DNA of 64,000 nt. Source: Psammoneis japonica. Its lineage: Eukaryota. A model generated the notes under the pieces. The model ran no database searches. It saw only the letters and a program-made list of their open reading frames with translations, and was not told where the DNA came from. The DNA lies in NCBI GenBank assembly GCA_008632985.1, contig QPGO01000025.1, forward strand, positions 1 to 64,000, read 5' to 3'. The position numbers and the translations under genes are program-made. How positions within the stretch are numbered: position 1 is the first letter of the stretch; each line of letters begins with the position of its first letter. Positions 465-60,410 of this stretch are shown here, piece after piece.

Positions 465-3400
465 TTCTGTTGCCACCACATCAAGACAGCAACATTGAAA
501 TCGAACACCACCAAGGCAGGCAACCATCACTGTGACAACCGCTGCTGCAACAAGTGTGGGGTTCCTGTGATGTGGGCCCCCCACATCAACAACCCCCAAG
601 AAGTGCACAAGCAGAGAGGGGAGGAGGGGAGCAAGGGAGCTCACTCAAAGCCACTGTGCGCCGGCTGCACTGCAAACTTGTTCTCACATTCACCCAGCAT
701 GAGCACCAAAAGATGTTAAAAATTTTGTGTGCCCCAAAAAGGGGTGGGGCTGCAAATCTTTCTGACTTCCTGACGCAGCCACTTTTTGCTTCCGCCAGCA
801 TTGGTTGGCTGTCCACGACATGCGTGTGACCAACCAAGCACTTTGGTGGCCTCCTCCAGAGACAAGTGCAACTCCCACATTGGCCAGTGCTGACAATCTT
901 GTCATGTCTTCTTGTGGTTGCTCATTGGGGCCTGCATCACCCACTGTGGCTGCCAGCGTGTGCCCTGGGTGCAGCATCGCGTCTCTGTTGCTTTCTGCTT
1001 TCTCAAGGACTCCACCCAGCTGGGTGCTGTTTCAATTGGCAGTGTCTGCAATCAACATAACTGCTGGAGAAAAAATGTGCAGTTCAACTGTGGTTGTGGA
1101 ATTTCTGCAGCCACAGCTTTGTGTGGCAGCTGCCCACCGTTGGAGGCTGTGTGTCATCTGCTGTGGCTCTGGAGGTGCTGCCATGTTTGTTGCTTCCAAG
1201 GATGCACTTCATCTGGTGGTGCAAGCACCAGCAGCTGTGGCTGCAACTCCTGCTGGAACCATGCTTGAAGAGTTGTTGCCAACTGCTTCTTGTCACACCC
1301 TTGTGCCACACCAAATGTTGTCGTGCGGCGCTTGGCTGGCTGCAAATGACAGCCACACTGCCTTCTCCATCACACATGCAACCTCTTTTGTTTGAGCCCC
1401 AATGTGTTTGCAGAGTCCCAATTTCTTGGACCTGGTGTTCTTGCATCTGCTGCCATCAGCTGTGTGCCTCCTGTTGCTGCAATGCAATGTCTCAAATTGA
1501 CAGTGCAGCTGCTGTCAATGCCCAGATGGATCTTGTGGCCACCAGCTCACCAAACATCAAGCCCATTGTGTTTGTCATGGTGCTTGTGAGTGAGCCATGT
1601 GCAGCAGTGATTTGTGCTGGTTTGCAGCTGTTGTCTGCCAGGATGGCAGCACTTTCTGCCAATGTTTGAACCAGCTTGATCTGAGCCCCAAAGGTTTCTG
1701 ATTCTGGCACTTGTGCCTTTTTCTGAGCAGCGGTGGTGGTTGCCACATTCTTCCAATGGATGGATCAGGTTGTGCCCATGCCACTTGCTGCCTCTGCAGC
1801 ACCATCATCATCTGACAAACATGGGTGCTGCCACCACTGTGTCAGCTGGTGCCAAGTTGAGCCACAGCACTCACATTGTCAACTCCACTCTTTCGCGCTG
1901 ATCTGAGCAAAACAAACAGAAATGGAGCAATGCCAAGTTTTATCGCCTTCACCTGCCAGTCATCAAATCTCTTTCCTCCACTGTCAAAGCCATTGTTGAA
2001 CTAAGCTGCACCCCCTTGCTGTGCTCCCAGCCTGCCTGCCATCATTGGCATGACCCCACAGTTCCCAACAAAAAGAGAGCAGGGCAGCAAAGTCATTTCA
2101 GGAGACACTGGCCAGCCAGCATGCGCCCATGCTTGTCCAATGCTGAGTCATTCTGCAATGTTTTTTCTTTGCCCAATGTGCTTTTGAGGGGCAAAGCAAA
2201 ATGCCATGTGGCAAAGGCACCAACTTTGACTGGCAGGCTGCCATTGCCTCATTTTGCTGCATTGTCCACCATGTGGTGAATTTTCACCTTGCTCCACTTT
2301 GCTCAATGAGACTCAACAATGCTGTGGCTTGCCAGAACATCCCTTGGACTTTGACAACTTTCTGTTGGTTGGTGTTTTTTGGGCACAAGACTTTGTTGAC
2401 AGGCAAGATTCATGGAAAGCTGCCACTGACTTTTTGTTGTTGTTGTTGAAAACTTTGATGGATTGCCAGCACGTGTGCCTGCCCACCACTGTCAGAGATG
2501 TTTCAGACACATTGATGCCCCCTGTGTGTTTCTTTCTTAAGACCTGCACTGTCTTTGGACAGATGCCACATGGATCAGGAGAGGCTGTCAGCATGCCAAC
2601 TCTGTGAGTGTCAGTCAAACCCAGATGCCTGCATGGACATCTGCCTCTCTTGCTCTTTCTCACCAGCACTCATGGCTCATTTGGCTGCAGGATGTTCTTG
2701 ATGGTGTTTGCAACAAGCTCAGCATCGCTTGTCAACTTGGTTGTTGCCAGTCTGACAGAAAGAAGAATAAAATCAACAAAATGAATCAAAGAAAAAGACC
2801 GCCACATCATTTTTGCAGTGTGTTTTGGGGTTTCAAGCAGACAAAACCTGGTGCAACAATTGCATTTGGCAAATGAGGAGAATGGTGCATCAACCTCATG
2901 TGCATCAACTCAAAAAAGAAGCTCATGTCAGAGAGAAAAGGGGGCATTTTTCTGCAGCAGTCAAGCAGCACTGGCATGTTTCTCTGCTTTCTGACATCAG
3001 TGTGCGTCACTGGATGAAAAAGAGCTCAACTGCAAACATGATCTGCCCCCCCCCCCCCCCCCNCCCAGGTGAATGCCTTGGCATCACTCACATTCAAGTG
3101 CAAGCTGCACTCTTCAAGAATGTGGGACATTGATGAAAAGTGCTTGAGTGGCAAGCTTGTGCTTGCCTGGAGCATGGACAAACAAAGGTTTTTCCAATCA
3201 CCAGCCAAATCTTCATGGGACAGGTCACACATTTGGTCTGCATGTTTTGTGCTGACTGTGCGACATTGTTGTGTGCCCACATGTGCAGAATAGCACCCAC
3301 AATGTTGTGTGTGCAATGCTTCTTTTTTTGTTTTCTAACATTCAAAGATGTCATGCAAATCTTCCAGATCAGAGATCAAAAATGATCCCTTGTCTTGCAA

Positions 3401-3468
3401 CTCATTTGGTGCAAATGAAAGACAAAGATGCTGCAAAAGCAACAATGTTGCACCACTGATGTCTCATC
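465..3468. other. TpA/CpG-depleted hypermutated block D1 (decayed repeat, family not identified)
   Basis: About 7 TpA in 3 kb by hand count; CA/TG-rich; overlapping Tyr-free, Cys/His/Gln-rich ORFs in all frames. Confidence 0.85.
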
Positions 3469-3681
3469 GGACTAGTCTACTGGCAGTCACCAGAACGTTG
3501 AGAGTGCTTCTAGCTGAAGGGGCAGCAGTCTTGCCCTAGGGCTGCTTTGCCAGTGGATGAGTCGGATGCTTGGTGGGGCGAAAAAGGTGGTGTCTTTGTT
3601 GGGCGCAGTGTCGGTGAATGGTTATTGAGTTGTTGCAGGATTCATACATTCGGTTCCTATGTAAGTAATTCAAGGCTGTTG

Positions 3682-4986
3682 CTACAAGGACTGGATTGAT
3701 TCCCCATCGCTGTCATAATACTCACTTTCCTCTTCATTCCCTAAAAACCATTCTTTGGTACCTGCTTCTGTCAGAACTTTCCAGCCAGCGTCTATCAGGA
3801 TTTGAGCAACAGCTTCGTCGTCTTTGGCCATTTCCCAAAACTTTTCAGAGGCATTGGCCACCAAAATTCCAGACGGCCTTTCGCTTAGCCAACGGCGACT
3901 TGCGTCTGCCCAAGCCTGGAATCCATTCTTTTCAGCGCATTTTGTTGTGCAGTAACAGGGTGATGGTACGATACGGCAAGGAAGCTCAAAAGCAACATGC
4001 AATTCGATCGAATTGTAAACAGCCTTTTCCTGGTCACGCACTTCCTTGCCACAACCATAACATTGCTCAATGTATTGAACTTTTGAGGTCACAGTGCCAT
4101 CGGAGATGCACAATTTTGAATCGAAAGTCTGGTTTGGAATGTTAAGGGGGGGCATTTCTTCGTTGTTTGCATGTTCTCTCTTGCGTTTTCTCTCGGATGT
4201 TACTTTGTGTGCGTGAAGATCGAGAGTTCTCCAGGGTGCAACTCTTACCGCCTCCGCACCGGGCGACTTTAGGGAAGGCATGAAACTTCCAGGGTCTGCT
4301 TCCGACACTCGTCGGTAAAGCTCTTCAACGGTCCATTGGATCCGAGCATCGTGTTCGTCGAGGTACCGTCTACCAAGAATGATACCATGACGCGAGCTGG
4401 GTGAAATACCAAGACGGGAACTGGGTGTTGTTGAATTGTTTATAGCTTCAGGTATCCAGAGTACATAGCCAGCAGATATGAAGTGTCCAAAGAGATTGTC
4501 ACCTTTGGCCACCACCAAGGCACCGTTCTCACCACTCGGTTGTGTGATATCGATTGCTGTCATGATGACATGAGAATGATCCTCGTGCTTCTTCTTGTCA
4601 CGTCCCTCTCCCATGTCCCAGCCAAGACCATCGACCATTTGGTAGTACCAAAACTCGTCCTTTCCACTCTTCTTTGGCGCGATGGTACCCGAGACATTGA
4701 AATCCATTTCCGATGCTTGAAAGGCCGAAAGATTCGGAGTCGGGACAGTCCTGGCATCTGGGTTATCTTCGCAGCCAATCCAAGAGCCCTTCCAGTCGAC
4801 GCGATCCTCCTCGTCATTGACCCTTGACATGCGACCTTCCCAGATGAATAACGTGTCTCTCCAACATCCTGTCATGATTGTTTTTGTTGGATTTGACATT
4901 ATCTGATGACACTTATCTTCAACACCAGCAGAAGATTTGAGATTGAGATGATGTTGACTGTTGACAGGCAGCGCATCAATCATCAA
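3682..4986 (-). CDS. Hypothetical protein with C-terminal Cys cluster (CYGC...CYCTTKC); start uncertain
   Basis: 434-aa ORF with normal Tyr usage and acidic tail, lying between two mutated blocks. Confidence 0.7.
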   Translation of the reverse strand: MMIDALPVNSQHHLNLKSSAGVEDKCHQIMSNPTKTIMTGCWRDTLFIWEGRMSRVNDEEDRVDWKGSWIGCEDNPDARTVPTPNLSAFQASEMDFNVSGTIAPKKSGKDEFWYYQMVDGLGWDMGEGRDKKKHEDHSHVIMTAIDITQPSGENGALVVAKGDNLFGHFISAGYVLWIPEAINNSTTPSSRLGISPSSRHGIILGRRYLDEHDARIQWTVEELYRRVSEADPGSFMPSLKSPGAEAVRVAPWRTLDLHAHKVTSERKRKREHANNEEMPPLNIPNQTFDSKLCISDGTVTSKVQYIEQCYGCGKEVRDQEKAVYNSIELHVAFELPCRIVPSPCYCTTKCAEKNGFQAWADASRRWLSERPSGILVANASEKFWEMAKDDEAVAQILIDAGWKVLTEAGTKEWFLGNEEESEYYDSDGESIQSL

Positions 4987-5049
4987 TCTTCAACCTCGGT
5001 TTAGTCCAACTAGTCAAATGATACGAGGCTTTCTGGGCGTTCTCCGCCC

Positions 5050-7320
5050 ATCACTGCGCACTGTGTCACAAACAGCAGTCTCGACAACACCTTTGCAATC
5101 GATTGATTCTCTGCAACTTTCAGCTGCATGCTGTGGTTTTAGACTCATTGCATGTCAACTCAAAACCAGCCAGATGCCATTGGTCTCATCACAGGAGCCC
5201 ACCAAGAGTCTCGCAGGGTTTTGTTCCCTCACTGCTGCCCTGCCTGTCAAAGGTGCTGGCTGCCGCTGTGAAACTGAGAAAGATCTGACTTGACCAACCA
5301 GACAAATCTCCAACTCAGTCTCTGCAGGGACAACAGTCAAACCCATCACAACCTGAAATCTTCAGCTGAGCAATGCCAAAGTGGCTCTTAAGTGCCCTGC
5401 CTTGTGTGTGGCCAACAAACACGTCTCTCTTGCCATGGCGCAGAAGTTGAGGACACACGCACAAAAACAGAGTCACTCTCTGCATGTGACACAGCTTCAA
5501 GTGACACATGTCAACTGCACCACTCAAAAAAAAAGCTGCCAAAGAGCAGCAGGCTTCCTCTTCCCAAAAGAGCTTGATGCACCCCGCAGTCTTGTGTCAA
5601 AAGCATGAGGAATGTCCACGCCACCTTGCCATCTGCAAAAAATGCTTTGACACATTTGAGTGCTGTTGCAAGTGGCAGCACACACTCTGCAGGAAAGCAA
5701 GCAACCACCAACAGACAAGCCACCATGAAATGAAAAAAGGCTCCTGCTGCAGCCTCCACAGCTGTCTTTCTGAAGTCAGGGCACAACGCTGCAGGCCCAG
5801 ACAATCTCAGCAAATTGATCGAGGACACCCCAACCATTGGGATGCAGTGAAAAGAGAAAGTCACAATTTGCCCTTTTTGGCTTGTCAACTTTGTTGGATC
5901 TCATGCTGGGAGCTGTGCAGAATGTGCACATCATGATTCCAACACATGCAACAGTGCACAATTGTCACACAAAGGCTTGCACCATGAGAGTGAGCAAACT
6001 GCCCTCATTGTTGCACTGCAGCAGTGACCAGCTTGCATTTGTCTCTGCTGTCTTTGCTCTCTCCCCTCTCTTCTTTTCAAGCAAATCATTGCTGAGCATG
6101 CAGACAGTTCAGTGCCACAAGCTGCAAGACAGACAAATTGCGCACATTCCAGACATGAGAATTTCACAGCTCTGCAGCTGATCTCACAGGCAGCAGCACC
6201 ACACAAAGCTCAGCACTCAACCTGCCACTTCTGTGGCTGGGCAGGATGGCTGCATGTTGGGCAGAGGCTCCAGCAGCTCTTTGTGCTTTGTTGGCTCCAT
6301 GCCAGCAAGCGTCAATCTCCTTTCTTGGAAATGAGTGGGCATTCATTGAAGATCTCTCCCATTTGTTGTCTGTGTTTCTCTGTGTGCAAGGTCACATGCC
6401 AAGTGTGCAGAAGATGTCATGCACCCATGTGTGCCTTTTTTTTCATTTTTCACTGCTCTCCCAGACTTTCACTGGTTTGACTCACCCTGTTGGCTGTGCC
6501 CAACTCACAAAAACTTTTGCCAAAAAGCTCCCCCCGCCATTTCACATCATGGGAGGGGAGCAACACATGTCAAAAAAAAAAAAAGAGCTCCATTTGTTTT
6601 GTGCTCTGTTTGCCACTCCTCTTGCTGCACTCTGTGTGTTGTGCATTCTTTGCCTCCAGACGAACAATGGAACACACAATTGTTCCTCATTCCACACATG
6701 CTCCATGTCCTCTGGTGCCACACAGGTGTGTGGCAGAAACTTCGAGACAACCATCTGTCAATGTCAGAAATGGAGTGCTGGATGGATCATCAAAGCTGTG
6801 TTGTGTCAACAAGTGTTGGAGAAATGCAAAGCTGACTGCCGTTCTTGCTGGGCTCTTCTGTGGTGCTGCACCAAGTTGTTTGAGACAGCACAAAAACAAG
6901 ACTCCTTTTTGGATGCTTTGTCATGGCTCTGCTGACAAAAAAAAATCAAAGAACAATCTCAAGACAGGAGCAGTTGCAAGCCACCTTCTCCAATTTGAGA
7001 TTCTTTCCTTGATGCTCATGCAACAAACAACCACAACAGAATGTGTGATGTGTGTTGAGCTCAACAAAAGAGCAATGCTCCAGTGCATTTTCAGATGCTG
7101 TTGTTGGCAGTGGTGCAGTGGCATGACAACACAGCAGCTGTTGGTGTCACACATCAGATCTTGGATGTGGTGTGAGCCACCAAAAGGTCCAAAATGAACA
7201 AGGCAGTTGTTACAATGATGGCCCCAGTTGGGCATTTCATGTGCAGATTTTCTTGTGTCACAACTGCCATGGCTGACACTTTGTCAAACAAAGCTGTGTT
7301 CAAGGTGCACTTTGAGCGTG
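5050..7320. other. TpA/CpG-depleted hypermutated block D2
   Basis: Only about 2 TpA seen in 2.2 kb (TTAG near 5140, TTAA near 5388). Confidence 0.85.
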
Positions 7321-7498
7321 ACTTTTTACCGCATAACACCAGGCACCGGTGGGGTGTGGGGCCCTCTGGCTCTACGATGTGGATGAACGTCACAAATGAG
7401 ATGCATCGTGTTAGAACATTTGCAGAAAAATGGTAATTAGCATAAGAAAGTAGCAGAAATAGTCTAGCTGATACCGCACGGCGGACACCTCATTGAAA

Positions 7499-19384: not shown

Positions 19385-19649
19385 GTTTTCGCTCAAGTGT
19401 GCAGCCGATGTATTTTTTTGTTTCGTTTTTTTTGTGTGACGAAACAACCAGATGAGACCAAAAGAGGCACGACTGCAACCATCCCCGCCACGTCACCAGG
19501 CAATTTTATGATTACATTCATGTACGATCATCACATCCCGAGGTGACGTCAGACTCGGAGAAAATAGAAACCCCGCATTTATTTTTGAAATCAACAACCG
19601 TCTTTCTCATGCTTTCCGAAACCAGTCCTAAAAACAACCAATGGATTAG

Positions 19650-39799: not shown

Positions 39800-39899
39800 T
39801 GCGAAAAATGGACTTGACTGCAAACTGATCAGGCTCATTTCAGAACAACGCATTTGCAGAAATACGCCTGATCAGTCAGCAGTCAAGTCCATTTTTGCA
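39800..39899. repeat. Inverted repeat with arms of about 42 bp and a 17-nt spacer
   Basis: aaaaatggacttgactgc..actgatcaggc pairs with gcctgatcagt..gcagtcaagtccattttt. Confidence 0.9.
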
Positions 39900-40152
39900 A
39901 AAGTTTTGAGAAGACAACAGTTTTGGTACAAAAACGTGCAACGGAATTGGGAATCTCGCTTGGTGTATTGCTCGAGGCCAGTGGACGCCGACCGTTTTTG
40001 CGCGCTTTTGCCAAAACGCAGAATGCAGGGCAGGTACTACTACTGTTGACTGTGCTGTAAGGGCCTACTCCTATGGTATCTTCTACTCCTATGAAGCAAG
40101 ACCTCGCTCATCAAATCATATCAGAGCCATAGGGCCTCTAAGATAGCGTACC

Positions 40153-41691: not shown

Positions 41692-42883
41692 TATGTCTCT
41701 TATTCTACCAAATCCAATCCAATTCATATGATTGTGTCCTCAAGGACAAAAATTGATCATCATCCTTATCATCTTGTTGCGACTTTGCCAATACGTCCAC
41801 CCTCGTGGGAGGGAAAATGGAATTCTGGAATCCTTTTCTGTGATTAATTAATAAATTTATGATCAGGCCCTTCTGCCGACCTGGCTGGATGTCATTGTTT
41901 CACTTAAAATTTTGGGGCCACTTCGAGTTAACAGGTCAAGACTCAAAGACTTCTACGCACTTGTAGTTATCAGGCTGCCTGCCTCTTCTCACTTTTGCCA
42001 TTGCTTTTCAATATATTAAATAATGTCAGAACGGAATATGTACACTAAAGTTTAGGAATGCACTGTTAGTGACAGCACATCCGCCGTTAAGCTTTGACAT
42101 GCATTATTTGATTTGCAGCAGAAAGTGAGCGTTCCAGCTCTCGGTGGGAGAATCCGCATTCTAGTCTCCTATTTCTCCTTTTCTGAGGCCTCCGAGTCAA
42201 GTTCAGTTTCGCTGCTCTTGGCCTGCACTCCAGCAGCTATGTTAGAAGCAAGGGCCGGGCTTCTTGTTCAGGAAAGCGAATGGTTCAATGTTCTCAAAGC
42301 TGTGACCATTTCGACCACTGCCTCAGCATTCAGGATGGACTTCCCTTCATGGATACACTGCCGATTGAAGACAGCGACCTCAAACGCTACCCCATTGTCA
42401 ATTTGACCAGCCCCTGAGGCTGTGTTCCCCAGTGCGTTGATGACGAGCGCACCATTGAAGATCTCCTCCGTGATTCACCGCCTGCCAATGATTGCGTGCA
42501 GACCATGTGGGATTCTTGGGTTTTGCTCCTTGTGCTTCCATCACTGAACGAGTTGCTTCCCAGTTTCATGTCATGATTGAGCGCGTTGAAGATCAATTGG
42601 ATCACACCACCCTCCATTGCCAGAATGGCTTGCTTGATGATCATGCTCCATGGTTTTTCCTCCAGCTTCTCCATCTCCAGCTTTCTGCACCGGCGACCAA
42701 TGTGTGGTTCAGCAACTCAGTTCCTTCACCCCCGTCCCTCTTGTCCAGGGTTAGAAGTCAAAGCAAGATCTCAACTTCTTGGATCAGGTTCATCCCATGG
42801 TTGGTTTTATCCCCGAGGAATGGGTCAAGTCCACCTTCAAGCATGCTGTCCAACTTGGGCACCTCCATCACAACACTGCTTTC

Positions 42884-43914
42884 TGGGATGGGCAAGTTGT
42901 GATGGGGTCAGGATTTGATTGCTGTGAAGCATGAAAGTCCAAGCATTGTTGTGAACTGGGATTTGATTGCATTGTTGTGAACCAATGGACATGACACTCT
43001 GTTGTTCTGAAACAGCTCTCAAGATGTGCGTTCACGAGTGTGAGTGAAGACATCCCCCAAGAGTTCCCGAGTTGCTTCTGGCCCATGCTCAAGGAATCCA
43101 AAGTCTTTGATGATGTGAGTGGCAATGGTGTGCAGCTGTGCCATGCCATTTCCAAGCAACAAGTGGATGCTTTTGGCAAAATCTTCCCTTGTTTCCCTGT
43201 GATGACATCAGAACAATTTGCCGAATGGCGTTGACCAAAACAAATTGAGGGTGCAACAATTGAGAGTGTCCTTTCCCAAGTTTTAATGGTTCGCCACAAA
43301 GGGAGCCTCAAAAATGGCTGCTCCCATTGACACAAGTGCCGTTGAGCTCAAATTTTGGTTGTTGTGTCCAAGTTTGCTGTCTGGAAAAGGTGCATCCCTG
43401 CACTGTGGTGGACCACCTTGTTGTTTGGAAAGGAGCTGCCTGGCATGGCTCTTGTGATTGGGGGAGCCAGTCCCCATGATGCACAAAAGAAGCTTCAGGA
43501 CCTTGCACATGAGGCATTGAAAACCAAAGCAGCACCACTTCTTGGGACCTCAACCCAGGACGGTGCTTGCAGAGCTCTGCACAATTGCATCTGCAGGTGT
43601 CTTTCTGAGTCACAAGGAACCCTTTGGGCTGGTCTTTGTCAAGTGCATGAGCGCAGGGACCCCCGTCATTGGAGCTTGCTCAGGTGGGCCAAAGGACTCA
43701 GTCACGGGGGGATGTCAACTGTCTTGTTGAGGAAATGGATGATCCTGAGGAGCTTGGAAGGAGGCTCAACAAGCAAGTGCAATCTGCCATCAAGGATGAT
43801 GGGAAAGTGGTGTCTCATGGCGAAGCTTGCAAGAAGCTTGCAGCCAATCTCTTCAGTGTCATGAAGCAGCACACAGAGCTGCTGAATTTTGTGAGGGAGC
43901 ATCTTGACATTTAG
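42884..43914 (+). pseudogene. Hypermutated copy of the GT4 glycosyltransferase intron and exon 2
   Basis: Colinear with 28731-29729; frameshifts; Tyr to Cys/His changes (ELYT to ELCT, PSYKE to LSHKE). Confidence 0.95.
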
Positions 43915-43984
43915 ATTTGACACAAACACTTTTTAGACCACCATGTTTCCAGTGCTCTTGAGTGCAAATGAACAAAACAACATG

Positions 43985-44844
43985 TGCAACTGCATCCCGA
44001 CATCCTCTTCTTCCAACTCTCTCTTCTCACCCTTGCGTGCCATGCTCCCAGCAGTTGAGAGTCCCAGGTTTGCCAGAATCTCTTGCGACAACACAGCACC
44101 CTTAATCTTAGACAACTTGCTTCCAATGGTTTTTGGAGATGTTGTGGCAAACAAGTGTCCTGAACTCAAATCGTCACCTCTGCGAGAGTGAAGGAGCCAA
44201 GGAGCATCCCTTGGCTTGTGACACATCTGTCGCAGCACTCTCTCTCCTGTGAGTGTGCCCAGTTGCAAGTGCATGCAGAGCTTTTGCAATGAAGCACCCA
44301 TCTTCATAAAGAGCAAAGTGTCTCAGCTCTGACACGTTTGGGTCTGGTGGTGTGGGGGGTGGGCGGATGAATCACACCGGCAATGAGTGCAGCGTGGGTG
44401 GTGGTGGAGCATGTCACCAACAACTTGTCTTGGTCACATGTTTCAACTGGTCCTTCAGTTTTGTCCGTGTAGATGGTTGAACACTTTCTTTTGGCATGAT
44501 TGGTGTCTGCTGGTTGCCATCCAGCAGATGGTGGCAAGATTTTGCCCTCCCAGCCAATCTTTGTCAACAAGGTGTGACAAGTGCCGAGTGGGATCCTTTT
44601 TCACATTGATCTTTGATCTCTTGTGATGAGCAACCCAAGAGCCTTCATCCCATTCTGTGCATTTGTGTGACAACTCAATCTTCTCATCACAAACCGGACT
44701 GTTTGGTGCAAAGAATCGATTTTTGTTTGCATTTGCACCAGCAGCAGTTGTGCAACGAGGACAAAGACAATGTCCACAAGGTGTCAAATGAACCACGTCA
44801 TGTTTGCCTTGTAAGAGAGGCCTCTGACATTCTTCACACTTCAT
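43985..44844 (-). pseudogene. Hypermutated copy of the RING-finger gene at 29803-30630
   Basis: MKCEECQRPLLQGKHDVVHL matches the intact gene; frameshifted; HEYT to HKCT. Confidence 0.95.
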
Positions 44845-45111
44845 TCCGGTTGTTCTTTTGGGTCATGATAAGTTCTCTGGATTGTCACCATGTCGCGGTA
44901 AAGAAAAACTTCAAACAAAAACTTTGAACCGAACAGGATTTAATTTTCGAAATTTTGGAAGTTTGTGCTGTACGCCGACCGTTTTTGCACGGATTTCCCG
45001 GCACAAAAAATGAAGGGAGCGAGATGCCGCGATGGCATTCCGAGTTCCTTGGCGAACACAGCGTCGATCATTTGCAGGCTACGCTCCCAACTCAGAAAAG
45101 AAGTAGCAACA

Positions 45112-49276: not shown

Positions 49277-49846
49277 TTGTGAAAACGAGGATAGTAGTCG
49301 TAGCTTTCTGTTTCACGTTCATGTACCGATTCTATGTTGTAAGAAGGGTAGAAAACAACTCGTCGAAGTCTCTACGTATGGAAAGAGCTTGGAGATATGG
49401 CATGTACACGATACTTTAGTTCGATGAAGTAGACACCTAAAAAATGTTATGTACCCGTGAACTCCGCACATCGGCAACTTAAACTGAAACTAGCCACTGC
49501 TGCGGGATAATGGTTGGCGCACGCAGATACGTTTTGTTTTCCATTTCAAAAGAATGATTTCGTGGAAGCTCCAACTGACGATTCAATGTGGCCAAGAGAA
49601 AAGCCCCGAGAACCGCTCTCCTGGAAAAAGCCGTTGCATCGACGAGGCCCACTAACTATTGTGGCCGCGAATGCACTTTGAACGTGCCACGGACTGCCCT
49701 ACAAGAGCAAGATCGTATGTAGTCCCATTCTCTCGAAGATTCAAATGGCGACAGCAGCCACCTTAGGGCCCTGTCATATCGCTTACTTCAGATGAACTGC
49801 TGGGAGTTTGCTCTATTACAAATATTTCTACTGCATGTTACTTAAA

Positions 49847-52589
49847 TTAGACCGAGACAACCCGAGGCCGAAAAATCGAGCTTGAAAAGGATTGAGAAGT
49901 TCCTGTGGTCGAGACACTCCTGTCGTCCCGTTGTCGTGAATCGCAGCGGTCTTTTCCGTGCGAGGATGAACCCTTGCGAGACTTATCATCCATTTTCTCC
50001 AGCCTATCCAAAACTGAGCTCTTTGATTTCGTTTCATCGTGCAGCATCTGCTTCAGGTGCTCGCGCTTCTTTCTGGCTTGTGCCAAAGTATGTTTCTTCT
50101 TTACAATTTCCCTCTCTTTGGTTACTCCCGTCTCCTCTGCAAGTTCTGTGAACCATCTTCTTAGCGTGTTTGAGGTTCGAGAAGTAACGCTCTGAACCAT
50201 ACTGTCATCATCGGTTTCGTCCTCTTCATCTCCAAATAATATCGAGTTCGCAACGGACTGGTAGGTTGAGCTAGCAGAAGTAGAGACAGATGATTCGTCG
50301 TCGAAAAAGGTGGTACACCGCGATGAAGACGAGCCATCGCCAATTGCATACAATTGTTTCTCGTGTTGTCCGACATGGCCCTGTGGATGGACTGCCTTGT
50401 ACAGGCTTCTGGCAGATTTCATGCTATGATCAATTTCTTTCTGCTCTCGTTCCATCTCTTTCACCATTTCTTTTTCCTCCCGGAGCATATTGATTGCCTC
50501 TTCTGCTGTATACATGGTCTGCAGCGAAAAGTATCTTTCAGCCCAATATGTGTCCATGGTAGAGACTGACGCTTCAGACTCGAAATCCCCAAGCAGGCTT
50601 TCTTCAACTCCAGAGTTCCGGCGGTCATGTATGGAAGAGTCGTCCGAAAAGTCAACGGAAATGTGACTGCCACGACTGCTGCGTCTTTGTGGCCGATGAG
50701 ATGACGTCTCCTCACCGCGGTAATTCTTCAGTGCCACTGCAGTTGTCCGCTTCTCGGGGCGTTGCTTTGTGGGCGATTTGCGACTGTGTCTACTTGAAGA
50801 TTCTGGGTCGCCTGGTTTGCGACTGTGCCTGCTACTTGAAGATTCTGGGTCGCTTGGTCTCCTTCGGCTCTTTCGTTTGGATGTTTTAAGAGACTGATCC
50901 TCTGATTCATCGACAGTTTGTCGGCTCCGACGTGACGAGGTGGTGGCGACAGACTTGGAGCTTCCTGGAATCCTCCGTTTGAGAGAGGCATCCTCCAGCG
51001 CATTCAGAGAGCGTTCCTTTCGACGTCGCCTTGACTTTTTGGGCTTTGAAAGCGATTTCATTAACACTTCATCAATAATTCGCCGGCTCGGAGGTGATGA
51101 ATCTGGCGTAACCGACGGGAGGTTACTTGGATTTCCTATTTCACCTGTTACGTCCTGCAACGCAAGCATCGTACGTTCCCTCTGTACACGATGCGACCTT
51201 TCTGATTCTGAAAGAGTCTGATTCAAAGATTCACTGACTATTCGGCGGCTCAATCGCGCTGTCGCTGTCGCCGTCGCAAGAGTTTGGTGAACATCAGTTA
51301 CGTCTGTGATGGTCGAACAATCATCCTTCTGTACCTTCGCGGTGCGGTCGTTTCGGCGACGATGCCTCCTTTCGGCTTCTACAACATGCTGTTTTTCAGA
51401 TTCGTTGGAAACTGGGTGACGGCTTGACATAGATGACTCTGTAGCGACCGTTTGACACCTATCACGATTTCTCACTCTGGGAGTAGCGTCCTCGGACTCG
51501 TTCTCAGCGCGCTCTCTTCGACGACGATGCGATGTGGGATTATTGGACCACTGCGCCACTCGTCACCAAAAGAGCTCCGTAGAGGTGTGATCGTTTGTAA
51601 TTTATTCAGTGGAACTGCTGAGTTAGCAGTGATGCGCGAGGTGCGCGCAGAATCATCGGAATTGTGGATATTCTCACACTCCCCGGCGGACGGATCACGG
51701 ATGGATGTTCAAGGTGAAGGAACTGGAGTGGTCTGGACGTAACTGAGTCTTGAAGATGATTCGATGTAAGCGTGTGTGCTTGATGTGGTGCGTGCCACGT
51801 GATGTCAGCGTTGTGACGTTTGACGTTCTGAATGTTGTCTTGTTGAAGATTGAGCTCTTCCCCGCGGTGCAGACATGCGTGCGAGTAGGGAAGGATCAGC
51901 TTTCCGAGGTGAGCGAGCGTGCTGAAGGATCTGAAAGTTGGGAATCGAACCCTTGGCCTCCAACGTTATATTGCAACCAAGTGGGATTATTGGACCACTG
52001 CGCCACTCGTCACCAAAAGAGCTCCCCGTAGAGGGGTGTTGATCGTTTTGTAATTTATTCAGTGGAACTGCTGAGTTAGCAGTGATGCGCGAGGTGCGCG
52101 CAGAATCATCGGAATTGTGGATATTCTCACATGCGACCTTTCTGATTTTGTAAGAGAGCGCCCTCTGCTTTCACTAGAAGTACCATGTTTTGTCGAAGCA
52201 AAAGCCGAACGCACAGAACGAACTGAACGCACGGAACGACCGTCACTTTCTCTTCTACTCCGGCGGCTTGTGAGCGAGGCTTCATCTCCGTTTCGACTCT
52301 GAGAAGACCTTTTCTTCTTCGTCCTTTTATGTTGAGATCTACGATGCAGCTCCTTCCTCTCTGTTTCCCTTCTCTGCAACCATTCCTTACTAGTTGACAT
52401 ATAAGCCGAGGTAGAACCGGATTCGACATCTTTTATACGGTTCTGGTCGAATTCTCTGGTGCTGCCGCTTTTTCGGTGATACTGTAGTTGCTGAAGCTGC
52501 TGTAGCTTGTGCGTTTTCGCTTGTTTTTCGCGAAGGCTGCGCAGTCTTTGCCTTAAAACTCGGAGATCTTCGTTCGATTGTTCGGCCAT
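49847..52589 (-). CDS. Ser/Arg-rich coiled-coil hypothetical protein interrupted by a TRIM; paralog of 53262-54800
   Basis: Removing 51533-52131 plus one target duplication gives one 713-codon ORF (..SERSH-RRRRERAE..); shares LRQRLR, ISVDFS and YWxERYF motifs with its neighbour. Confidence 0.85.
51533..52131 (-). mobile_element. Young miniature LTR element (TRIM-like): LTRs 52131-51981 and 51678-51533, 5-bp target duplication TGCGA
   Basis: TG..CA ends; PBS-like TGGTTGCA after the 5' LTR; GGGGAG before the 3' LTR; LTRs differ only in homopolymer lengths and the last base. Confidence 0.92.
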
Positions 52590-53261
52590 ACTACAAGAGT
52601 TGCAGCAGAGTTCGTGTGAAATGTGTGCTCTTTTTACGAGTTGAGTATTTGAGTATGGTCTTGAGTGGCGTGTGACGACAGTTCGACGATTTTGTTGACG
52701 GGGTTGAAGAGATGAGAAAGTGCAAAGATGAAGCGAACACGAAGGTGGTGCAAGTTTGATCCGATTTCAAAAGTTCTCCCAAGTACCTTCTTTAATTAAT
52801 ACATATTCAGACCCGAGGCTTATAGAAATGAAACGGGAACAGTGGGCCGAACCCTCTCCATTCATTGCAATTCAGTGCGATTTATTTTGGTGCCGTTGCG
52901 ACATTTCTGTAAGTTGGCTCGAGAACCGAAAACTGAGAAACAGACACGCGAGACACATCAGCCAATGCCGATTTCAAATTTGAATGCCACTCCCACAAAC
53001 TCTTTCTTCTACTTTGTCGGAGGAGGAAAAAGTGAACAGTTTGGTACTACGGTAGATGTTGCACACCAAAAGCTGCGGATGAATCAATCTCTAGAGTAGC
53101 TATTCCTAGAGTTGGCCTTCATACGGTAACAGAACACACTAGAATCATCTAAAACGTGCACGTCTTACCGTAGAGGTACGAGGGAGGGGTGGATACAGAA
53201 CTACCACACTGACAGCCGCTAGCAGTAACGTGTCAACAACCGAAACTCTCAGTCTCGTTAC

Positions 53262-54800
53262 CTACCTACCGGTGGACAAAAGGCTTGCCTCACCGAGGAT
53301 CTTTGGATGAAAAATCGCGCTCACAAAGGACCGAGAAGTCCCCATTGTCGACACACTCTCGTCGTCCCATCCGGCTTGAGAATCAGCACAACTATCCAAG
53401 AGAGAGTCATTATCGTGAGGTACTCCCTCCATTTTCTCAAGCTTATGCAGCAGTCTCGCATTCTGTTCGGTTCGTTTCGCCAACTTTTTGCGGAGCACGT
53501 CGCGTTCCTTTTTCGCTTGAGCCAGATTCCGCCGCATCTTTAGCTGTTCACGCTCAGTTTCTGTGCCTACTTCGTTTTGGAGGTTGGGGAACCATTTGTT
53601 TACAGCACTCGAAATACCTGAAGTCACACTCCTCCCTGTAGTGCTGGCCGCATCATCGCCATCATGAACTGACGGCTTTGAGAACATTGAGCCTACAATG
53701 GAACTGGCATACGTAGAGACACTTCTATCATCCCACGTGGCTTGCGATGCCGTCTCATCATCATTTCCATAAGGGTCTTTCTCTAGACGCTTCGAATTCT
53801 CCTTGCCCAGCATGTGCCGTTTGGAGAGGCTCTTCTTTAGAAGAGTTCGCTGCTGCTTTGCCTCTTCCATGTCCCTTTCCAACTCCCTCTTTTCTGCCTC
53901 CAGCAATCTCATCATTTCTTTTTCTTCCCGAAGCATCTCGAGGGCTTCTTCTGCTGTGTACTCAGACTGGAGCTGGAAGTAGCGTTCGCCCCAATATGTT
54001 TCAATAGAGGCATCATCGTTGAAGAGCGAATCATTGTCGTCAAGATGGCTTTCTTGGTTTCCACAAGACAACTCGCCAGAGACATTTCGTCTGCCAGCAT
54101 GAGAGGAGAGCGAAGGTACTTCAGAGAAATCCACAGAAATGTGGTTGAGACGTTTTGTAGGCTTTGGTTTTTCATAAGTTTTGCACTTGCTTCCCTCGTC
54201 AGACGAGGGCTTTTTCGAGCGCTCTTTGGAGTTCTTCTTGGAGCTGCGACTACGTCGCTTGTCTTTGCTATGTGATTTCTTAGTCTGCTTGAGAGAGAAT
54301 TCCTCAGAGTCATCAATGGTCTGGTGGCTTCGACGTGACTTCTTTGGAACATATGGTTGATCTGCAACGTCGATATTTTTGTAGCTGGAACGCCGAGGCT
54401 TGGGCGGTGACACCTCGGACTCGTCAACGTCATGGAGGTTGTGACATCGGAAAGATCCATGTTCAGACTTAGAAAGGGAGCGGTTACTGCCAAGGTCCGT
54501 TGTTTGAAGCCCGGAGGAACGCTGGGATTGGCTGTCGCTGGACCGCCTTGCTGGTTTCTTTCTTGATCTACGGCTTCGCTCTTCTCGCTTCTTTTCTCTC
54601 CTCTGTACCCACTCTTTAGCTGCGGCGAAATCAGAAGAAGGCGCTGCCGATGCCTCGCTGCTATTCTTCTTCACCTCTGCGTGATCGGTCTTCTTCAAAG
54701 CCGGTTTCTTGACTTGCTTTCGACGAAGCTTTCGAAGCCTCTGTCTCAAGCTTCGGAGCTCATCACTTGGCTGCTCGTTCGTTACTTCCTCAGCGGCCAT
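53262..54800 (-). CDS. Ser/Arg/Lys-rich coiled-coil hypothetical protein (tandem paralog)
   Basis: Intact ORF of about 512 aa; YWGERYFQLQSEYTAEEALEMLREEKEM matches the neighbour. Confidence 0.8.
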   Translation of the reverse strand: MAAEEVTNEQPSDELRSLRQRLRKLRRKQVKKPALKKTDHAEVKKNSSEASAAPSSDFAAAKEWVQRREKKREERSRRSRKKPARRSSDSQSQRSSGLQTTDLGSNRSLSKSEHGSFRCHNLHDVDESEVSPPKPRRSSYKNIDVADQPYVPKKSRRSHQTIDDSEEFSLKQTKKSHSKDKRRSRSSKKNSKERSKKPSSDEGSKCKTYEKPKPTKRLNHISVDFSEVPSLSSHAGRRNVSGELSCGNQESHLDDNDSLFNDDASIETYWGERYFQLQSEYTAEEALEMLREEKEMMRLLEAEKRELERDMEEAKQQRTLLKKSLSKRHMLGKENSKRLEKDPYGNDDETASQATWDDRSVSTYASSIVGSMFSKPSVHDGDDAASTTGRSVTSGISSAVNKWFPNLQNEVGTETEREQLKMRRNLAQAKKERDVLRKKLAKRTEQNARLLHKLEKMEGVPHDNDSLLDSCADSQAGWDDESVSTMGTSRSFVSAIFHPKILGEASLLSTGR

Positions 54801-55357
54801 TTGCGGCAGCCTTAGACAGGATACGGTAGTGCGGCAATACAGAGGAGGATCTGTTGTACCGTTACAATGAATAGCAGGGCTTTGCAATGCCCCCTCAGAC
54901 AATCTCACCCGTCATTACTCTTGGCAACGACATGCCCAACCAGCAACCAGACGCACTTGAGTTTTCCTGAGTTTTTCCTCATACTTCAGAATGACTCGTC
55001 AGTCCTGTATTGGGATCAATGACCTTTCTCGTGAATTGACTTTTGTCTTTCGTATGGTTTCACAGTCATCGTTTCCTAAGTGACTAGAAAGGTAGCATTG
55101 ATATTGGGCTTATACTGAGATTCTCTACCGAAAACCACGACTCGTCAAAATGACTGGCATAACGTAGATTGGAAAGACTTTCGAAAGTCAAAATTGTCTT
55201 TTCAAGTCATATGACCGTCTTAATCCGTTCGGGAGGTGTGAACGAAGTGTCATGCTCACGTTTTCCTCGAGATTTATGCCGACCTCCCCATCAGTGTTTC
55301 AACAAAAGACGTGCACAAATTACCGAAACAAGAGTAAGGAGGCTCAAAATTTCAGCC

Positions 55358-56152: not shown

Positions 56153-56789
56153 CAGTAATGGGAAAAGGTTGGTTCTATTGGGACGTGATCGCTGTGCAAC
56201 AATGCAAGTGCTTTACACTAAATTTAGGATCATTTTGCACTAGTCTAAACGCTTTCATTGAAGCTCTTGATGGAAACGGTTGCACCTGACTGTCACTAGG
56301 GCCCTACTACAAAATCTTCCTGACATCGAATGACCAGAACAGCGTTTTGGCAAGATACAGCTTTCAGTAGGACACCTCAACCGCGACCTCAAGCGGTGGG
56401 TTAGATAAAGGATGGGTTGACTTCATTCAAAATTTCAGTTTTTGGTCTGACAATTTTGTTTAGGAGTCGATAAAACTGTTATGGGCGTACCAATGCCGAG
56501 CGTCCAATTGGAATGACCGTACATTGATAAAGCTCTAGCAACGAATTGTTTATAAATGCGTCAATCGGCACGGTGGATTTTTTAGTCGTGTCCAGCGTGA
56601 ATGTAATATTGTGCCTTGAAAAGATGAATGATTTCGTATGTATCATACCAACAGCGGCCTAAGAACTTTTTTCGCATTTAGAGAAATAGAGCAATGTCAT
56701 CCTCTCTCTGAACCATAGGAGTCAACAACGGATGAATTTAAGACATTGAACATGAATAAAAGTAATGAAGCTTCAACGTCTATTCCCTC

Positions 56790-59700
56790 CGATGGTGACC
56801 AAAAATTTGGCAATCTGCAGCAAGTTCAGCCCCGTCCACCCCAGCCATTTTTTGACTCTCATCCATCGTGTGCACAACAGGGGCCAGCTGGCAGCAGCAG
56901 CCATGCTCTGTGTGTTTTGCACACCCCATGCTTGCTGGGAGACACCTCAGAGGTGGCTCCGCTTTTGCGCTCCTCTTCTTCCTCCACGAGCTCCCCCAAG
57001 CCCAGAGGGGCAGAGTTTGGCCCGCGCTGCTGTGTTTCTTGAAAGTCTCTTTTCCTTTTCTTCGCTGGGTGCTGCTCTGCTTTGCACTGCATTTTTGGCC
57101 ATCAAGGCAGCCAGAGAGCTTTTTTCATTCCTCCTTCTCTTTCAAAACTTGTTTTTTGTGCCACCGCCAGCTGCCACTCTTTTTGTGGCGGAGCCCAAAG
57201 TGCCTGCCTGCTGCAAAGGGTGGCAAGGAGAGCAAGAAGAAAGTGATGCAGCCAGCCTGTCTGCGCTCTTTTTGTCAGCTGGCAATTTTTCAATGCAGCC
57301 AAGAAGGGACAAGAGAGCCACATCCATGCTGAGAGCAGAAAAGCGGGGCAGAGCCATGTCAGCAGCACGAGAGAAAGCGGGAAAACAAGCACAAAAGAGA
57401 GGCGAGAGAGAAATGAAGTCTCGAGAGGAAGGAGCCGCAGATGAAGGTGGGCAAAGAGGGTGTCAGAAGATGGCTTTTTACCCATTCCACCCTTCCACCA
57501 AGGTCCTCACTTGTGCTGTGTGGCAAGCCGCTCTTTTTGTCACCAACTTCCCCCCTGCAGATGCCAGCACGGCCTGCAGGTGCTGCAACAGTCACTCAGT
57601 CTGATGAGGAGTCCATGAACCGCGTGGGAACATTCTGTGTGCTGCCACACGCGATGCTGCGTGGCCACTTTGGTGGTCCATCATTGAAACACTGGGCCCC
57701 CTCAGTGGTCTGTGCCACTCTGGCTGACAAGTTTGTCCAGACCCCGCCGGTCTTCTTTCCACCCCCCCCCAAAATGCCCTGCCAATGTTGGCGTTCAACT
57801 CATCCCCAGTTCCACACCACCAGAAGCCCCATCCACCCACCAATTTTTGGCCATTGACATCAATGTGCCGACAGCTCTGGCTCCCGCGCCTCCTGTGCAC
57901 CTGGCTTGCCTGCCCCTGAAAAGAACCTGTTGAACAAGGCTCACCTCAGCAGTGCATGGGACAAGCTCCTTAGCTGAGCCTGACAAAATTAAGGCAAGTG
58001 GCAAGAATTCAAACAATGACTCCTTGCTGCTGTCTAAATGGCAGATGAGTCTCCACTCAGAGACCGTCACAGGAGCCGAAAGACGTGCAAGTCGGTGTGA
58101 TGGGCTGCTGTCATCGTTCTTGTGAGCCTTGTGGCTCGAAAGCAAACCACATCATGCGCGAACGCGCGGAACTGAAGCACACAAAACTGTGCACGGCAAA
58201 CTAAACAGCACGCGACATTTCACGCGCACCTGAGTCCTGCTCAAATCCTGTCACTCCCCAGTTTGCTTGAGGAGTCACAGAAACAGATTCGACTTCGGAT
58301 GGAATGAAGTTCCAAAACATGAGGGGATGGAGAAGGTTCCAGATTTGGGAGCAACCCCAATGCTTGCTGAGAATGTCAGCAGGGTTGCGGGAGCCTTCGA
58401 TGAAGTGGAGCTCAAGGCAGCCAGAGGCAATCGCCTCGCGCACACGATGGAATGAGAGAGCGGTGTGTCGCTTGTGCAACTTGGAGTGCAGGATGGTGGC
58501 ACTGTCCACAACTGACTTGTTGTCACCGAACATGCAACTGATGTCACGGATCGGGATGCCGAGGTGACACAGGGTGATGCGCAGGTCAACAATCTGCTCA
58601 ACACAAGTCCTTGCGGCAACAAATTCAGACACCCGCAGGTCGCAGTCTCCACGGTGGCTTGCTTCTTAGAGAACCAATCAGCCGGGCATTTGTTGAGGAA
58701 GTGGAGCATTCCCATGACAGAGCATCCGGTGAGCATGCAATGGTGCAAGTTTGCATTGACGCAGTGGGTGGCAGTGACGAACTTGCCAAGGGGCGGTGGA
58801 GCGTCCTTCGGGATCATCTCTTCTGCTTCGCCGCACACAGAGTGCATCCACTCACAGGCCGGAGCAGGGAGATCCGAATGGTCGGGCTCTTCTGTGCGAA
58901 CGCGGAGAGCGCCGTGTCGCATCTTGGAGAGGTGCCCACAGATGCATTTGGCACGATCCAAGTGGCCTTGACGGGGCGCAGCTCGGAAGCCAGACAGTGA
59001 CATGACGGCCGTGGCAATGTCAATTCGACTGAGAGACACTGCCCATTGGAGGGAGCCAACAAGAGACTGGAGCTGTTGAATGCCATCGGGTTCCAGCAGT
59101 TTGGAAGTGTCCAGTTCGGGGTGGTCACCCTTTTCCAGAGGGGACAGGACGTTGGTGGCAGGTTTCTCCCCAAACAGTCATGTGCAGCTGTCGACCATGC
59201 GTTCGATGCACTTGCGCGGAGACAGACACAAGGTGCCGTCAGGATCCTGGGAGAAGTCGCAGCCTGGGTGGAACTCAATCGGTCCCGCACCCTTGAGCTT
59301 GAACTTGTGCTTCTCCATGAGAGCATCAACGAAAGGCTGAGGATCCTTCATGGCAATGGCGAGGTCATCCACATGAACGGCAACACATTCACAGTGGTCG
59401 CCATTCCTGTGCACCCAAATGTCGGGTTCGGAGCGGCAGGGGAAGAAACCTTCAGCTCGCAGGCAGTCGGCGAAGCACTCGTGCCAGTGGAGGCCGGAGC
59501 TGCGCAGTCCACATGGGGCCTTGTAGATGACAAGAATGTGGCCTTCGAGTTTGCCAAATTCGGGTCCGCGTCATCTGCGCGCCATTCCAACGTTGTTGAT
59601 GCCATCAATCAAGCAGGGCTGCTCCTCTTGCCTCTCCTTTTCACCTTCGACCACCTGGGCAGTGTTGGGGGCACCACTTCCACATCTTCTTCTTTGGCAT

Positions 59701-60410
59701 CTCCACCACAACACCCCCCTCTGTCCCTCCTGTCCCTCCCAAACTGCCTTGGGCTGATCCATCTTCCCTCTCCAACTCCCAAGCTTCCTTCTCTGCCCTC
59801 AAACACTCACTCCCAGCTCCCTCTGACTTCCTTGCCCACTCGCCCAAAACAATGCCTCCTGGAAACAAGTGTCAGCAGACCGCTTTGGCACCTCCCATCA
59901 CACCACAACCCCTCAACCCTCAACTTCGGGCCTCACAAATCCTCAGCCTCAACTTCGGCGTTGCTCTCTCCAACCACCTTTCTGCATGCCAAGCCCTCCG
60001 CCTTCTCTGACACCCAACCATGCATCAATGAAGTGCAACTTGTTTGAGGCTTGATCGACATTCAGTGGCATTTTTTCAAACAGCTCGTGATTTTGCAATC
60101 TTCTCGCACTTCGCCCGCGTCATTTTGCGGCGCCTCTGAGCACCCCAAACACCCATGTGTGTGTCTGGCCCCCATCAGGGCTGTCAGACCTTTGCATGAA
60201 CTGTGCTTGTCAACCTTCAAATGCCAATTGTCGCATCAGGTGCGGTTGTGATTTTGGGCGAACCGCTGTTTTTCACCAAAATCGGGCTGTCAATGACAGA
60301 CAAGCCGCGGCTTTCCAGGAAAGGCCAAGAACTGGCGTTTGACTGGCCACAGACATGTCTGCTGGTGCGGTCGTTGTTCTGGAGATCCCGAACCTTCATG
60401 TTCATTGTGC
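56790..60410. other. TpA-depleted hypermutated block D6
   Basis: About 7 TpA in 3.6 kb; includes the Copia remnant. Confidence 0.9.
58254..59565 (-). mobile_element. Truncated Ty1/Copia RT-RNase H with polypurine tract; 3' LTR starts at 58253 and runs left (extent uncertain)
   Basis: KAPCGLRSSG, VHVDDL, WFSKKQATVETAT, MFGDNKSVV, FHRVREAIA, NPADILSK; GGGGAG then TG. Confidence 0.93.

Follow-up and report, generated by a model that had tools for sequence, protein, structure and literature searches.

What removes the dinucleotide TpA from some segments of a chromosome and leaves the genes between them untouched? The question is raised by a stretch of 64,000 bp from Psammoneis japonica (contig QPGO01000025.1, positions 1-64,000; below, the window), and all our results concern this one window. 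It contains six blocks that have lost nearly all their TpA. A first-pass annotation of the sequence explained them by a genome defence acting on repeats, in which A is changed to G at TpA and CpG decays in addition. We conclude, with a probability of about 0.7, that the six blocks represent non-functional, silenced segments of a diatom-like nuclear genome, altered in place by a regional TpA>TpG/CpA process of the same kind as that described in a preprint on the chlorarachniophyte Bigelowiella natans (Mettrop et al., bioRxiv 10.64898/2026.01.13.699255). Two blocks of recognised origin carry most of the evidence, one formed by a decayed duplicate of a host gene pair, the other holding a relic of a Ty1/Copia retrotransposon.

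Six TpA-poor blocks

The observed-to-expected (o/e) ratios of dinucleotides were calculated in 500-bp windows, and the blocks were segmented at no more than two TA per 300 bp. The segmentation yields six blocks (Table 1) with a combined length of 21,463 bp, the remaining part of the window being 42,537 bp. The blocks contain 80 TA (o/e 0.06), whereas 1631 are found outside (o/e 0.57), a rate that predicts 823 TA for the blocks (binomial p = 4e-249). The o/e ratio of CG is 0.37 in the blocks and 0.98 outside, and those of TG and CA are 1.72 and 1.79, respectively, whereas both equal 1.13 outside. Pyrimidine-purine steps have an unchanged share, 0.248 in the blocks and 0.236 outside, as would be the case if transitions had turned TA and CG into TG or CA. 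The GC content is 0.517 in the blocks versus 0.480 outside.

The loss is sharply confined. The edges of the blocks are abrupt, about 100 bp or less, and the depletion of TA and that of CG start and stop together. For example, at the edge of block 6, TA is seen each 5-30 bp up to position 56781, and then none is present until 57479. The genes and spacers between the blocks have normal composition. Moreover, TA o/e in the non-coding flanks of the blocks is 0.50-0.84, hence the pattern is not a general neutral bias restrained by selection in genes. This confirms the initial description of six abrupt TpA-poor blocks alternating with normal genes; the span of 465-60410 assigned to the system by the first-pass annotation agrees with the first and the last block to within about 100 bp.

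A decayed duplicate of a host gene pair

Block 5 holds a copy of a gene pair whose intact source is situated in the same window (Table 1). The main gene of the source encodes a GT1 glycosyltransferase (Pfam Glycos_transf_1, E 1.8e-26). Self-comparison of the window aligns 42968-44932 with 28789-30715 at 79.8% nucleotide identity over 1983 bp; in purine/pyrimidine coding, the identity is 92.7% and the match reaches 28727/42880. The source gene is spliced, since a contig from sequencing run X2 skips its intron (28737-28831, 95 nt, with GT..AG ends), and the source copy is expressed-looking. Run X2 itself is listed as 'DNA?', yet behaves like RNA-derived contigs. Block 5 arose at the DNA level and is no retrocopy, since it retains part of the intron along with the two convergent genes.

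The aligned core of the source has 58 TA and 115 CG, which is normal composition. The alignment of 2002 columns features 261 transitions and 88 transversions. In the copy, 24 of the 58 source TA have become TG and 20 have become CA, five are kept and one is CG; the mutated sites are spread along the whole copy. The 115 source CG have yielded 51 TG and 31 CA, with 18 kept. The change thus goes from TpA to TpG or CpA and affects both strands. The earlier claim that internal comparisons demonstrate this direction is supported by the present large pair, by three short repeat pairs, and by one pair with a member inside and a member outside purged DNA.

The change is also specific to TpA. When the counts are collapsed over the strands, A>G is seen at 46 of 114 TpA, 28 of 274 ApA, 31 of 277 CpA, and 18 of 279 GpA positions. 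The comparison of TpA with all other contexts (46/114 vs 77/830) yields an odds ratio (OR) of 6.6 with p = 1.4e-15, so that the enrichment of A-to-G at TpA suggested initially is real; the rate at TpA has a ceiling of 0.5, as the first mutation destroys the site. C>T is concentrated at CpG (86/228 vs 46/693 elsewhere, OR 8.5, p = 5e-27). It is observed at 22 of 276 CpA, and at 49 of 279 TpC compared to 20/184 to 32/210 in other 5' contexts.

A purged Copia relic

Pfam was applied to 25 open reading frames (ORFs) of the blocks and then to 173 block ORFs of at least 70 aa, and the sole significant match to a transposable element (TE) was RVT_2 in block 6 (ORF 59181-59570 on the minus strand, 40.6 bits with the cut-off of 31.6, E 2.9e-10). 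A full-library search yields 739 proteins at E<=1e-10. In a tblastn search with 20 Copia polyproteins, residues 1454-1880 of the 1881-aa polyprotein P0244 are collinear on 59567-58285 with identity 63-69%. The same search provides nothing upstream of residue 1454 (no gag, protease or integrase) and no match in other blocks, and no long direct or LTR-like (long terminal repeat) repeat was found in block 6. Hence block 6 has RVT_2 followed by the RNase H/C-terminal part of the polyprotein and lacks gag, protease, integrase and LTRs: it is a truncated relic, not a complete Copia element.

Over 428 codons, the reading frame of the relic is still interrupted by one stop and shifted once only. Tyr columns were counted as conserved if at least 70% of 12 homologues have Tyr there. 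Tyrosine is kept at none of the 12 conserved-Tyr columns, where the relic has eight Cys, three His and one Leu. The replacements fit single codon changes, TAY>TGY for Cys and TAY>CAY for His (Y, pyrimidine). At the same time, retention is 91-100% for G, L, P, S, H, E, K, W, Q and N, and 12 of 17 for Arg, the others being two His, one Gln and two Cys. Even the catalytic motif of the reverse transcriptase, YVDD in Copia elements and in the consensus of our homologues, is HVDD here.

The pol relic of 1286 bp contains two TA and 73 CG (1.6 and 56.8 per kb, respectively), and the loss of TA is 94-97% of the expected number. This is not a property of the family. In the homologous pol stretch of related Copia loci from a metagenome, TA density is 27.5-82 per kb with the median of 47.7 (79 of 79 loci), and TA o/e of the whole loci is 0.50-0.94. 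Since all 79 have normal TA, Copia elements of this family are not intrinsically TA-poor; the scan used Tyr/Phe-containing peptide patterns, which mostly miss purged relatives, so it does not gauge the spread of the purge.

Loss of TpA and decay of CpG

Blocks 1-3 and 5 are depleted in both TA and CG. The Copia relic separates the two losses: its CG density, 56.8 per kb, exceeds the median of its relatives (45.4), yet its TA density is 1.6 per kb. The reverse is seen in the metagenome Copia loci L035, L061, L007 and L066, where CpG o/e is 0.10-0.26 and TpA o/e is 0.50-0.78, that is, CpG decay occurs without TpA purge in other hosts. Hence the two processes are separable and the loss of TpA is independent of CpG decay, as the first-pass annotation had claimed and as the relic, which has lost TA and retained CG, demonstrates.

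The loss of TpA is the faster of the two processes, as the frame of the relic is still nearly open although the loss there is complete. The C>T changes seem to belong to a second, slower process. As in deamination of 5-methylcytosine (5mC), CG in the purged tracts gives way to TG or CA (82 of the 115 source CG in block 5; CG o/e of 0.37 in the blocks). However, deamination of 5mC cannot remove TpA, and the Copia pol relic has lost TpA but not CpG.

Mutation after duplication

For several pairs of related copies, both members are situated in purged DNA. Their differences include reciprocal TG<->CA pairs, TG in one copy standing against CA in the other and vice versa. Five such reciprocal pairs are seen between the 114-bp repeats at 35128 and 35464, which are 100% identical in purine/pyrimidine coding and 89% identical in nucleotides. 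There are eight in the 190-bp pair 31444/31800, six between the tandem units at 30797 and 31123, and four in the pair 32183/39582 (32183-32289 and 39582-39687). Reciprocal differences arise because an ancestral TA or CG mutated on opposite strands in each copy; therefore, the mutations came after the duplication, in the chromosome. The outermost unit of the tandem array has 20 CpG and the next unit inward has 12, the degree of mutation rising across the boundary.

The intact source gene pair (28789-30715) is unmutated despite its duplicate in block 5. An older tandem pair of gene duplicates, 49859-50573 and 53298-54020, is located outside all blocks; its members are 76% identical in purine/pyrimidine coding over ~730 bp, and TA o/e in the 500-bp windows of 49501-54500 is 0.36-0.78. 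Finally, block 4 is separated from its continuation by an insertion resembling a miniature inverted-repeat transposable element (MITE), an AT-rich element that ends in inverted repeats of 24 nt (92% complementary) and is flanked by TGTC on either side. It retains 31 TA (o/e 0.91) and 27 CG (o/e 1.57). In run X1, the summed k-mer depth of its bins is 13,000-57,000 compared to ~60 nearby, which hints at many copies, although the depth is not a copy number. High copy number alone thus does not attract the process. The suggestion that the mutator is targeted at repeats is not supported by these three cases, all of which keep their TpA.

Reliability of the sequence

DNA run X1 contains 96% of sampled 31-mers of the segment 39500-47500. 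Its contigs, with depth about 60, show no differences from the assembly over 36691-39196, 39898-43103 and 43081-44330, and one difference over 33368-34586; therefore, noisy reads are an unlikely source of the blocks. Run X2 covers some genes and the 226-bp insert of block 4 but not the remainder of the blocks, missing cover in this run being no sign of silence. A third run, X3, covers nothing.

Comparison with known systems

To our knowledge, the erasure of TpA from selected parts of chromosomal DNA had not been reported for any organism before 2026. The closest counterpart comes from B. natans, where integrated viral DNA undergoes TpA>TpG/CpA hypermutation de novo (Mettrop et al., bioRxiv 10.64898/2026.01.13.699255). 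As described in this preprint, 15 mutation-accumulation lines yielded 302 de novo mutations; 231 of them fall into two integrated viral regions, one of a giant virus and one of a virophage, and 230 of these 231 are A>G or T>C and are placed on TpA. The regional rate, ~6e-7, is about 1000-fold over the genome baseline, and the process is active in some lines only. The preprint further reports 124 clusters depleted in TpA and enriched in CpA and TpG, and enrichment of reverse transcriptase and DDE domains among TpA-depleted coding sequences. The authors favour adenine deamination and propose homologues of ADAT2/3 as candidates; their Discussion cites the preference of ADAR for 5'-U, and reported activity of amphioxus and trypanosome ADAT2 on DNA is cited as well (10.64898/2026.01.13.699255). 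Thus the statement of the first-pass annotation that no system with such a spectrum had been described is superseded. The terms CpG, diatom and stramenopile do not occur in the preprint, and our full-text literature searches found no report of TpA loss in diatoms or diatom repeats.

The two cases agree in many respects. In both, TpA becomes TpG when one strand is mutated and CpA when the other one is, A:T>G:C transitions being concentrated on TpA (here, 44 of 58 TA in the gene duplicate, OR 6.6, and eight Cys plus three His at the 12 Tyr columns). In both, the changes are confined to non-host-like or silent DNA, here one Copia relic, one host duplicate and four blocks without recognised origin; the long-term footprint consists of TpA-depleted clusters enriched in CpA and TpG. 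The differences are the host, a chlorarachniophyte there and a diatom-like organism, judged by the best protein matches, here; the targets, giant-virus and virophage inserts in the preprint versus a Copia relic and a host-gene duplicate; and the completeness of the purge, which is far greater here (TA o/e of 0.06 compared to Rho of 0.45 given for the region of a nucleocytoplasmic large DNA virus). What is new, then, is a different lineage, new kinds of targets, much greater completeness and a loss of TpA that can be shown to be independent of CpG decay.

Repeat-induced point mutation (RIP) of Neurospora and other fungi changes C to T mainly at CpA, creates TpA, and mutates both copies of a duplication. 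Like the process considered here, it is a regionally confined, dinucleotide-directed process that produces only transitions and kills transposons and duplicates, with boundaries following the element. However, here TpA is destroyed, the source copy is intact, and the older gene pair lies in sequence with normal TpA. RIP is rejected given the TA o/e of 0.06, the GC content that is higher in the blocks (0.517 vs 0.480), C>T at only 22 of 276 CpA, and the source that keeps 58 TA and 115 CG. The initial characterisation of the process as the opposite of RIP is correct.

Inactivation of parasites by base deamination is also the mode of action of APOBEC3/AID, which change C to U in DNA, of ADAR, which changes A to I in double-stranded RNA (dsRNA), and of ADAT2/3 and TadA-like enzymes. 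The latter deaminate A34 of tRNA, which follows the conserved U33. The preference of ADAR and ADAT substrates for a 5' U or T neighbour fits TpA. On the other hand, the TpC signature of APOBEC is weak here (C>T at 49 of 279 TpC), and RNA-level editing by ADAR is excluded for block 5. We know of no natural deaminase that purges TpA from chromosomal DNA.

Mechanism and alternative explanations

The process turns A:T into G:C at one or the other position of the palindromic TpA step, within discrete segments. The agent might be a DNA adenine deaminase with a 5'-T preference, similar to ADAT2/3 or TadA; with U33-A34 of tRNA as a native site, such an enzyme is the simplest candidate. Silenced chromatin, and not repetition of the sequence in itself, would be its target, and it would act fast and in bursts, hence its possible role in genome defence. 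Tyr codons (TAY), TAA and TAG stops and TA-containing signals would be destroyed. Ordinary deamination of 5mC would then proceed more slowly in these silent tracts and cause the decay of CpG there. In line with the earlier statement that the window encodes no candidate enzyme, Pfam finds no deaminase domain in 52 ORFs (16 + 36) out of the 90 ORFs of at least 100 aa outside the blocks.

A more specific form of this reading is tentative and, in our opinion, somewhat less probable than its negation. It states that a fast editing defence dedicated to DNA and specific to TpA exists in diatom-like algae, in the simplest case a natural DNA adenine deaminase derived from the tRNA A34 deaminase, that it is aimed at newly silenced DNA, be it transposons or surplus gene copies, independently of cytosine methylation, and that it is homologous to the B. 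natans system.

The idea of an adenine-directed mutator stands as far as TpA-directed A:T>G:C change on both strands, confined to dead DNA, is concerned; 'adenine' in it is a presumption, as A>G on one strand equals T>C on the opposite one. Indeed, since TpA is palindromic, TA>CA reads as T>C, and TA>TG as T>C on the opposite strand. The attacked base may therefore be thymine, modified in TpA by a TET/JBP-type dioxygenase or in another way, e.g. to 5-hydroxymethyluracil, which would mispair with G. This base is present in dinoflagellate DNA, where it is enriched at TpA and TpC. However, T>C at TpC is not visibly raised in block 5, the complementary A>G at GpA being the lowest of all contexts (18/279), and we know of no TET/JBP-type thymine-modifying enzyme or modification in diatoms. 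The authors of the B. natans preprint favour adenine deamination, and we consider the attack on thymine unlikely. Still less likely is a by-product of silent chromatin, that is, gap filling by a Y-family polymerase similar to Pol eta with A>G at WA (W, A or T), or missing transcription-coupled repair of a TpA lesion. The blocks do look transcriptionally dead and show CpG decay, as methylated heterochromatin would. But the WA motif fails: A>G is seen at 28 of 274 ApA and at 49 of 556 CpA and GpA (OR 1.18, p = 0.53), which removes Pol eta from the candidates named initially. Moreover, the loss of 94-97% of TA in a relic with a nearly intact frame points to a rate far above background, and the boundaries follow the element ends within ~100 bp.

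Editing prior to integration, with transposon RNA or dsRNA subject to A-to-I change by an ADAR-like enzyme (5'-U) and then reverse transcribed, would suit block 6, a relic of a retrotransposon, and the agreement of the boundaries with the ends of elements; ADAR does favour 5' U (10.64898/2026.01.13.699255). It is very improbable all the same. Block 5 is a DNA copy with an intron, intergenic sequence and two convergent genes; both strands are affected, as seen from 24 TG vs 20 CA in block 5 and from eight Cys vs three His on the sense strand of Copia; and tandem units within one block have reciprocal TG<->CA differences. We give as little credit to an artefact of basecalling or polishing at modified bases, or to foreign DNA that has always been TA-poor. 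The sequencing platform is not recorded and run X1 may be the assembly's own data. However, contigs of depth ~60 reproduce block stretches of 3.2 kb and 2.5 kb with no differences. Strand-specific miscalls at a modified palindrome should leave a mixture in which TA and CG are included, whereas 44 of the 58 sites read TG or CA without ambiguity and one reads CG, and the changes are coherent at the protein level (Tyr>Cys/His). As for foreign composition, 79 of 79 related Copia loci and the paralogue in the same window have normal TA.

Several observations weigh against the reading of the blocks as silenced DNA rewritten by a B. natans-type process. The spectrum in B. natans, according to the preprint, is purely AT>GC, whereas most blocks here have lost CpG as well, with an excess of C>T at CpG (86/228) and the block CG o/e of 0.37. 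The origin of blocks 1-4 was not recognised by Pfam on their ORFs, so a TE or a duplicate as the source is demonstrated for two of six blocks only. The unmutated MITE-like insert within a purged tract may mean that the process is not ongoing, or is episodic, or spares short or young elements. As to the agent, a change of A to G on one strand looks the same in the sequence as a change of T to C on the opposite strand. A processive single-strand deaminase is not indicated: runs tests for strand-coordinated tracts in block 5 are not significant (23 runs vs 22.9 expected for TA events, 45 vs 39.5 for CG), though the copy is old and saturated. The A>G rate decreases by the 3' neighbour from TAC (0.53) through TAT (0.40) and TAG (0.35) to TAA (0.25), with 20-36 sites per class, but this trend is not significant by hand calculation. 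Finally, if X1 is indeed the assembly's own data, the support that it provides is not independent.

Significance

The erasure of TpA is not peculiar to chlorarachniophytes, as the same signature, and a more complete one, is found in a diatom-like genome. Nor does viral origin define the target, given that a retrotransposon relic and an ordinary duplicate of host genes are affected. TpA erasure is separable from the decay of methylated CpG. The question of the enzyme becomes approachable by comparing genes for deaminases and thymine-modifying enzymes across lineages with and without the footprint, and by diatom genetics. If the defence reading is true, the system would be an ancient genome-defence module of the SAR lineages (stramenopiles, alveolates and Rhizaria). 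It would mirror fungal RIP in function and would be nature's equivalent of the adenine base editors used in the laboratory. For genome editing, a deaminase that naturally acts on adenine at TpA in DNA would be of interest.

There is also a practical aspect. Purged tracts, devoid of TAA and TAG, yield long spurious ORFs and escape both Pfam and TE annotation. They are easily mis-annotated, because stop-poor ORFs are long and Pfam misses a decayed copy of a gene: the purged glycosyltransferase copy in block 5 has no Pfam match.

Other features of the window

The features are listed in Table 1.

Table 1. Purged blocks and associated features of the window. Block 4 ends at 39170, before the MITE-like insertion; the segmentation extends it to 39224.
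Feature	Coordinates	Strand	Description
Block 1	356-3473		3118 bp; TA 10, CG 30, TG 390, CA 352
Block 2	5012-7334		2323 bp; TA 5, CG 23; TA-free from 5389 to 7211
Block 3	19581-20945		1365 bp; TA 7, CG 22
Block 4	30918-39170		Largest tract, 8253 bp; TA 32 (o/e 0.07), CG 250 (0.44)
Block 4 continuation	39571-40030		Partly purged; TA 7 (o/e 0.20), TG o/e 1.49, CA o/e 1.60
Block 5	42244-44899		Purged; 42880/42968 to 44943 is a DNA-level duplicate of 28727/28789-30726
Block 6	56758-60451	-	3694-bp purged tract; TA 11, CG 153; holds 5'-truncated Ty1/Copia relic
Copia pol relic	58285-59570	-	Second half of reverse transcriptase to C-terminus; one stop, one frame change
Intact source copy	28727-30726	+	Second half of GT1 glycosyltransferase (begins inside its intron) and convergent neighbour gene
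Tandem array	30797-31989		Period ~326 bp; straddles left edge of block 4
Short insert	35248-35473		226 bp inside block 4, between direct repeats 35128-35241 and 35464-35577 (114 bp)
MITE-like insertion	39171-39570		400 bp, not purged; separates block 4 from its continuation
Tandem paralogous ORFs	49850-51562, 53265-54911	-	571 and 549 aa; no Pfam family

Block 1 has 26 ORFs of at least 70 aa with no Pfam match below E 0.01, and no repeat partner of it exists within the window, purine/pyrimidine coding included; a single N is present in it at position 3063. Likewise, ORFs of at least 70 aa from blocks 2 and 3 have no credible Pfam match. Self-comparison in purine/pyrimidine coding (control maximum 167 bits) reveals no hidden repeats linking blocks 1-3 and 6. 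The ORFs of block 4, including that of 305 aa at 38224-39138 on the minus strand, belong to no Pfam family and have no homologue. A weak match to zf-RING_5 in block 5 (E 3.6e-4) is under the family cut-off.

The 226-bp insert of block 4 has CpG o/e of 0.94 and only two TA, its summed k-mer depth in X1 is very high, and it is also found as an X2 contig with ten differences. Its origin from tRNA, which we considered because the stretch GGTTCGAAACC resembles the T-arm by eye, is not supported, since ARAGORN and Rfam (E<=1, 35100-35620) find nothing. For the whole window, Rfam at gathering thresholds yields no matches and ARAGORN no tRNAs. In the partly purged stretch upstream of a kinase-like gene, the segment 39804-39896 is a near-perfect palindrome of 93 bp (83% self-complementary).

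An ORF of 435 aa, 3685-4989 on the minus strand, forms an island between blocks 1 and 2; it has no Pfam match, and its TpA and CpG are normal. The genes of the window are eukaryotic and intron-poor, encoding a kinesin-4-like protein, an LCIB/theta carbonic anhydrase, a RING-UBC protein and others. Among the protein matches listed, none exceeds 69% identity, and the named ones include no Bigelowiella. The best named matches are from diatoms: for the kinesin, a Thalassiosira species at 59%, followed by Seminavis, Nitzschia and Cylindrotheca at ~50%, and for the carbonic anhydrase, matches at ~40%.

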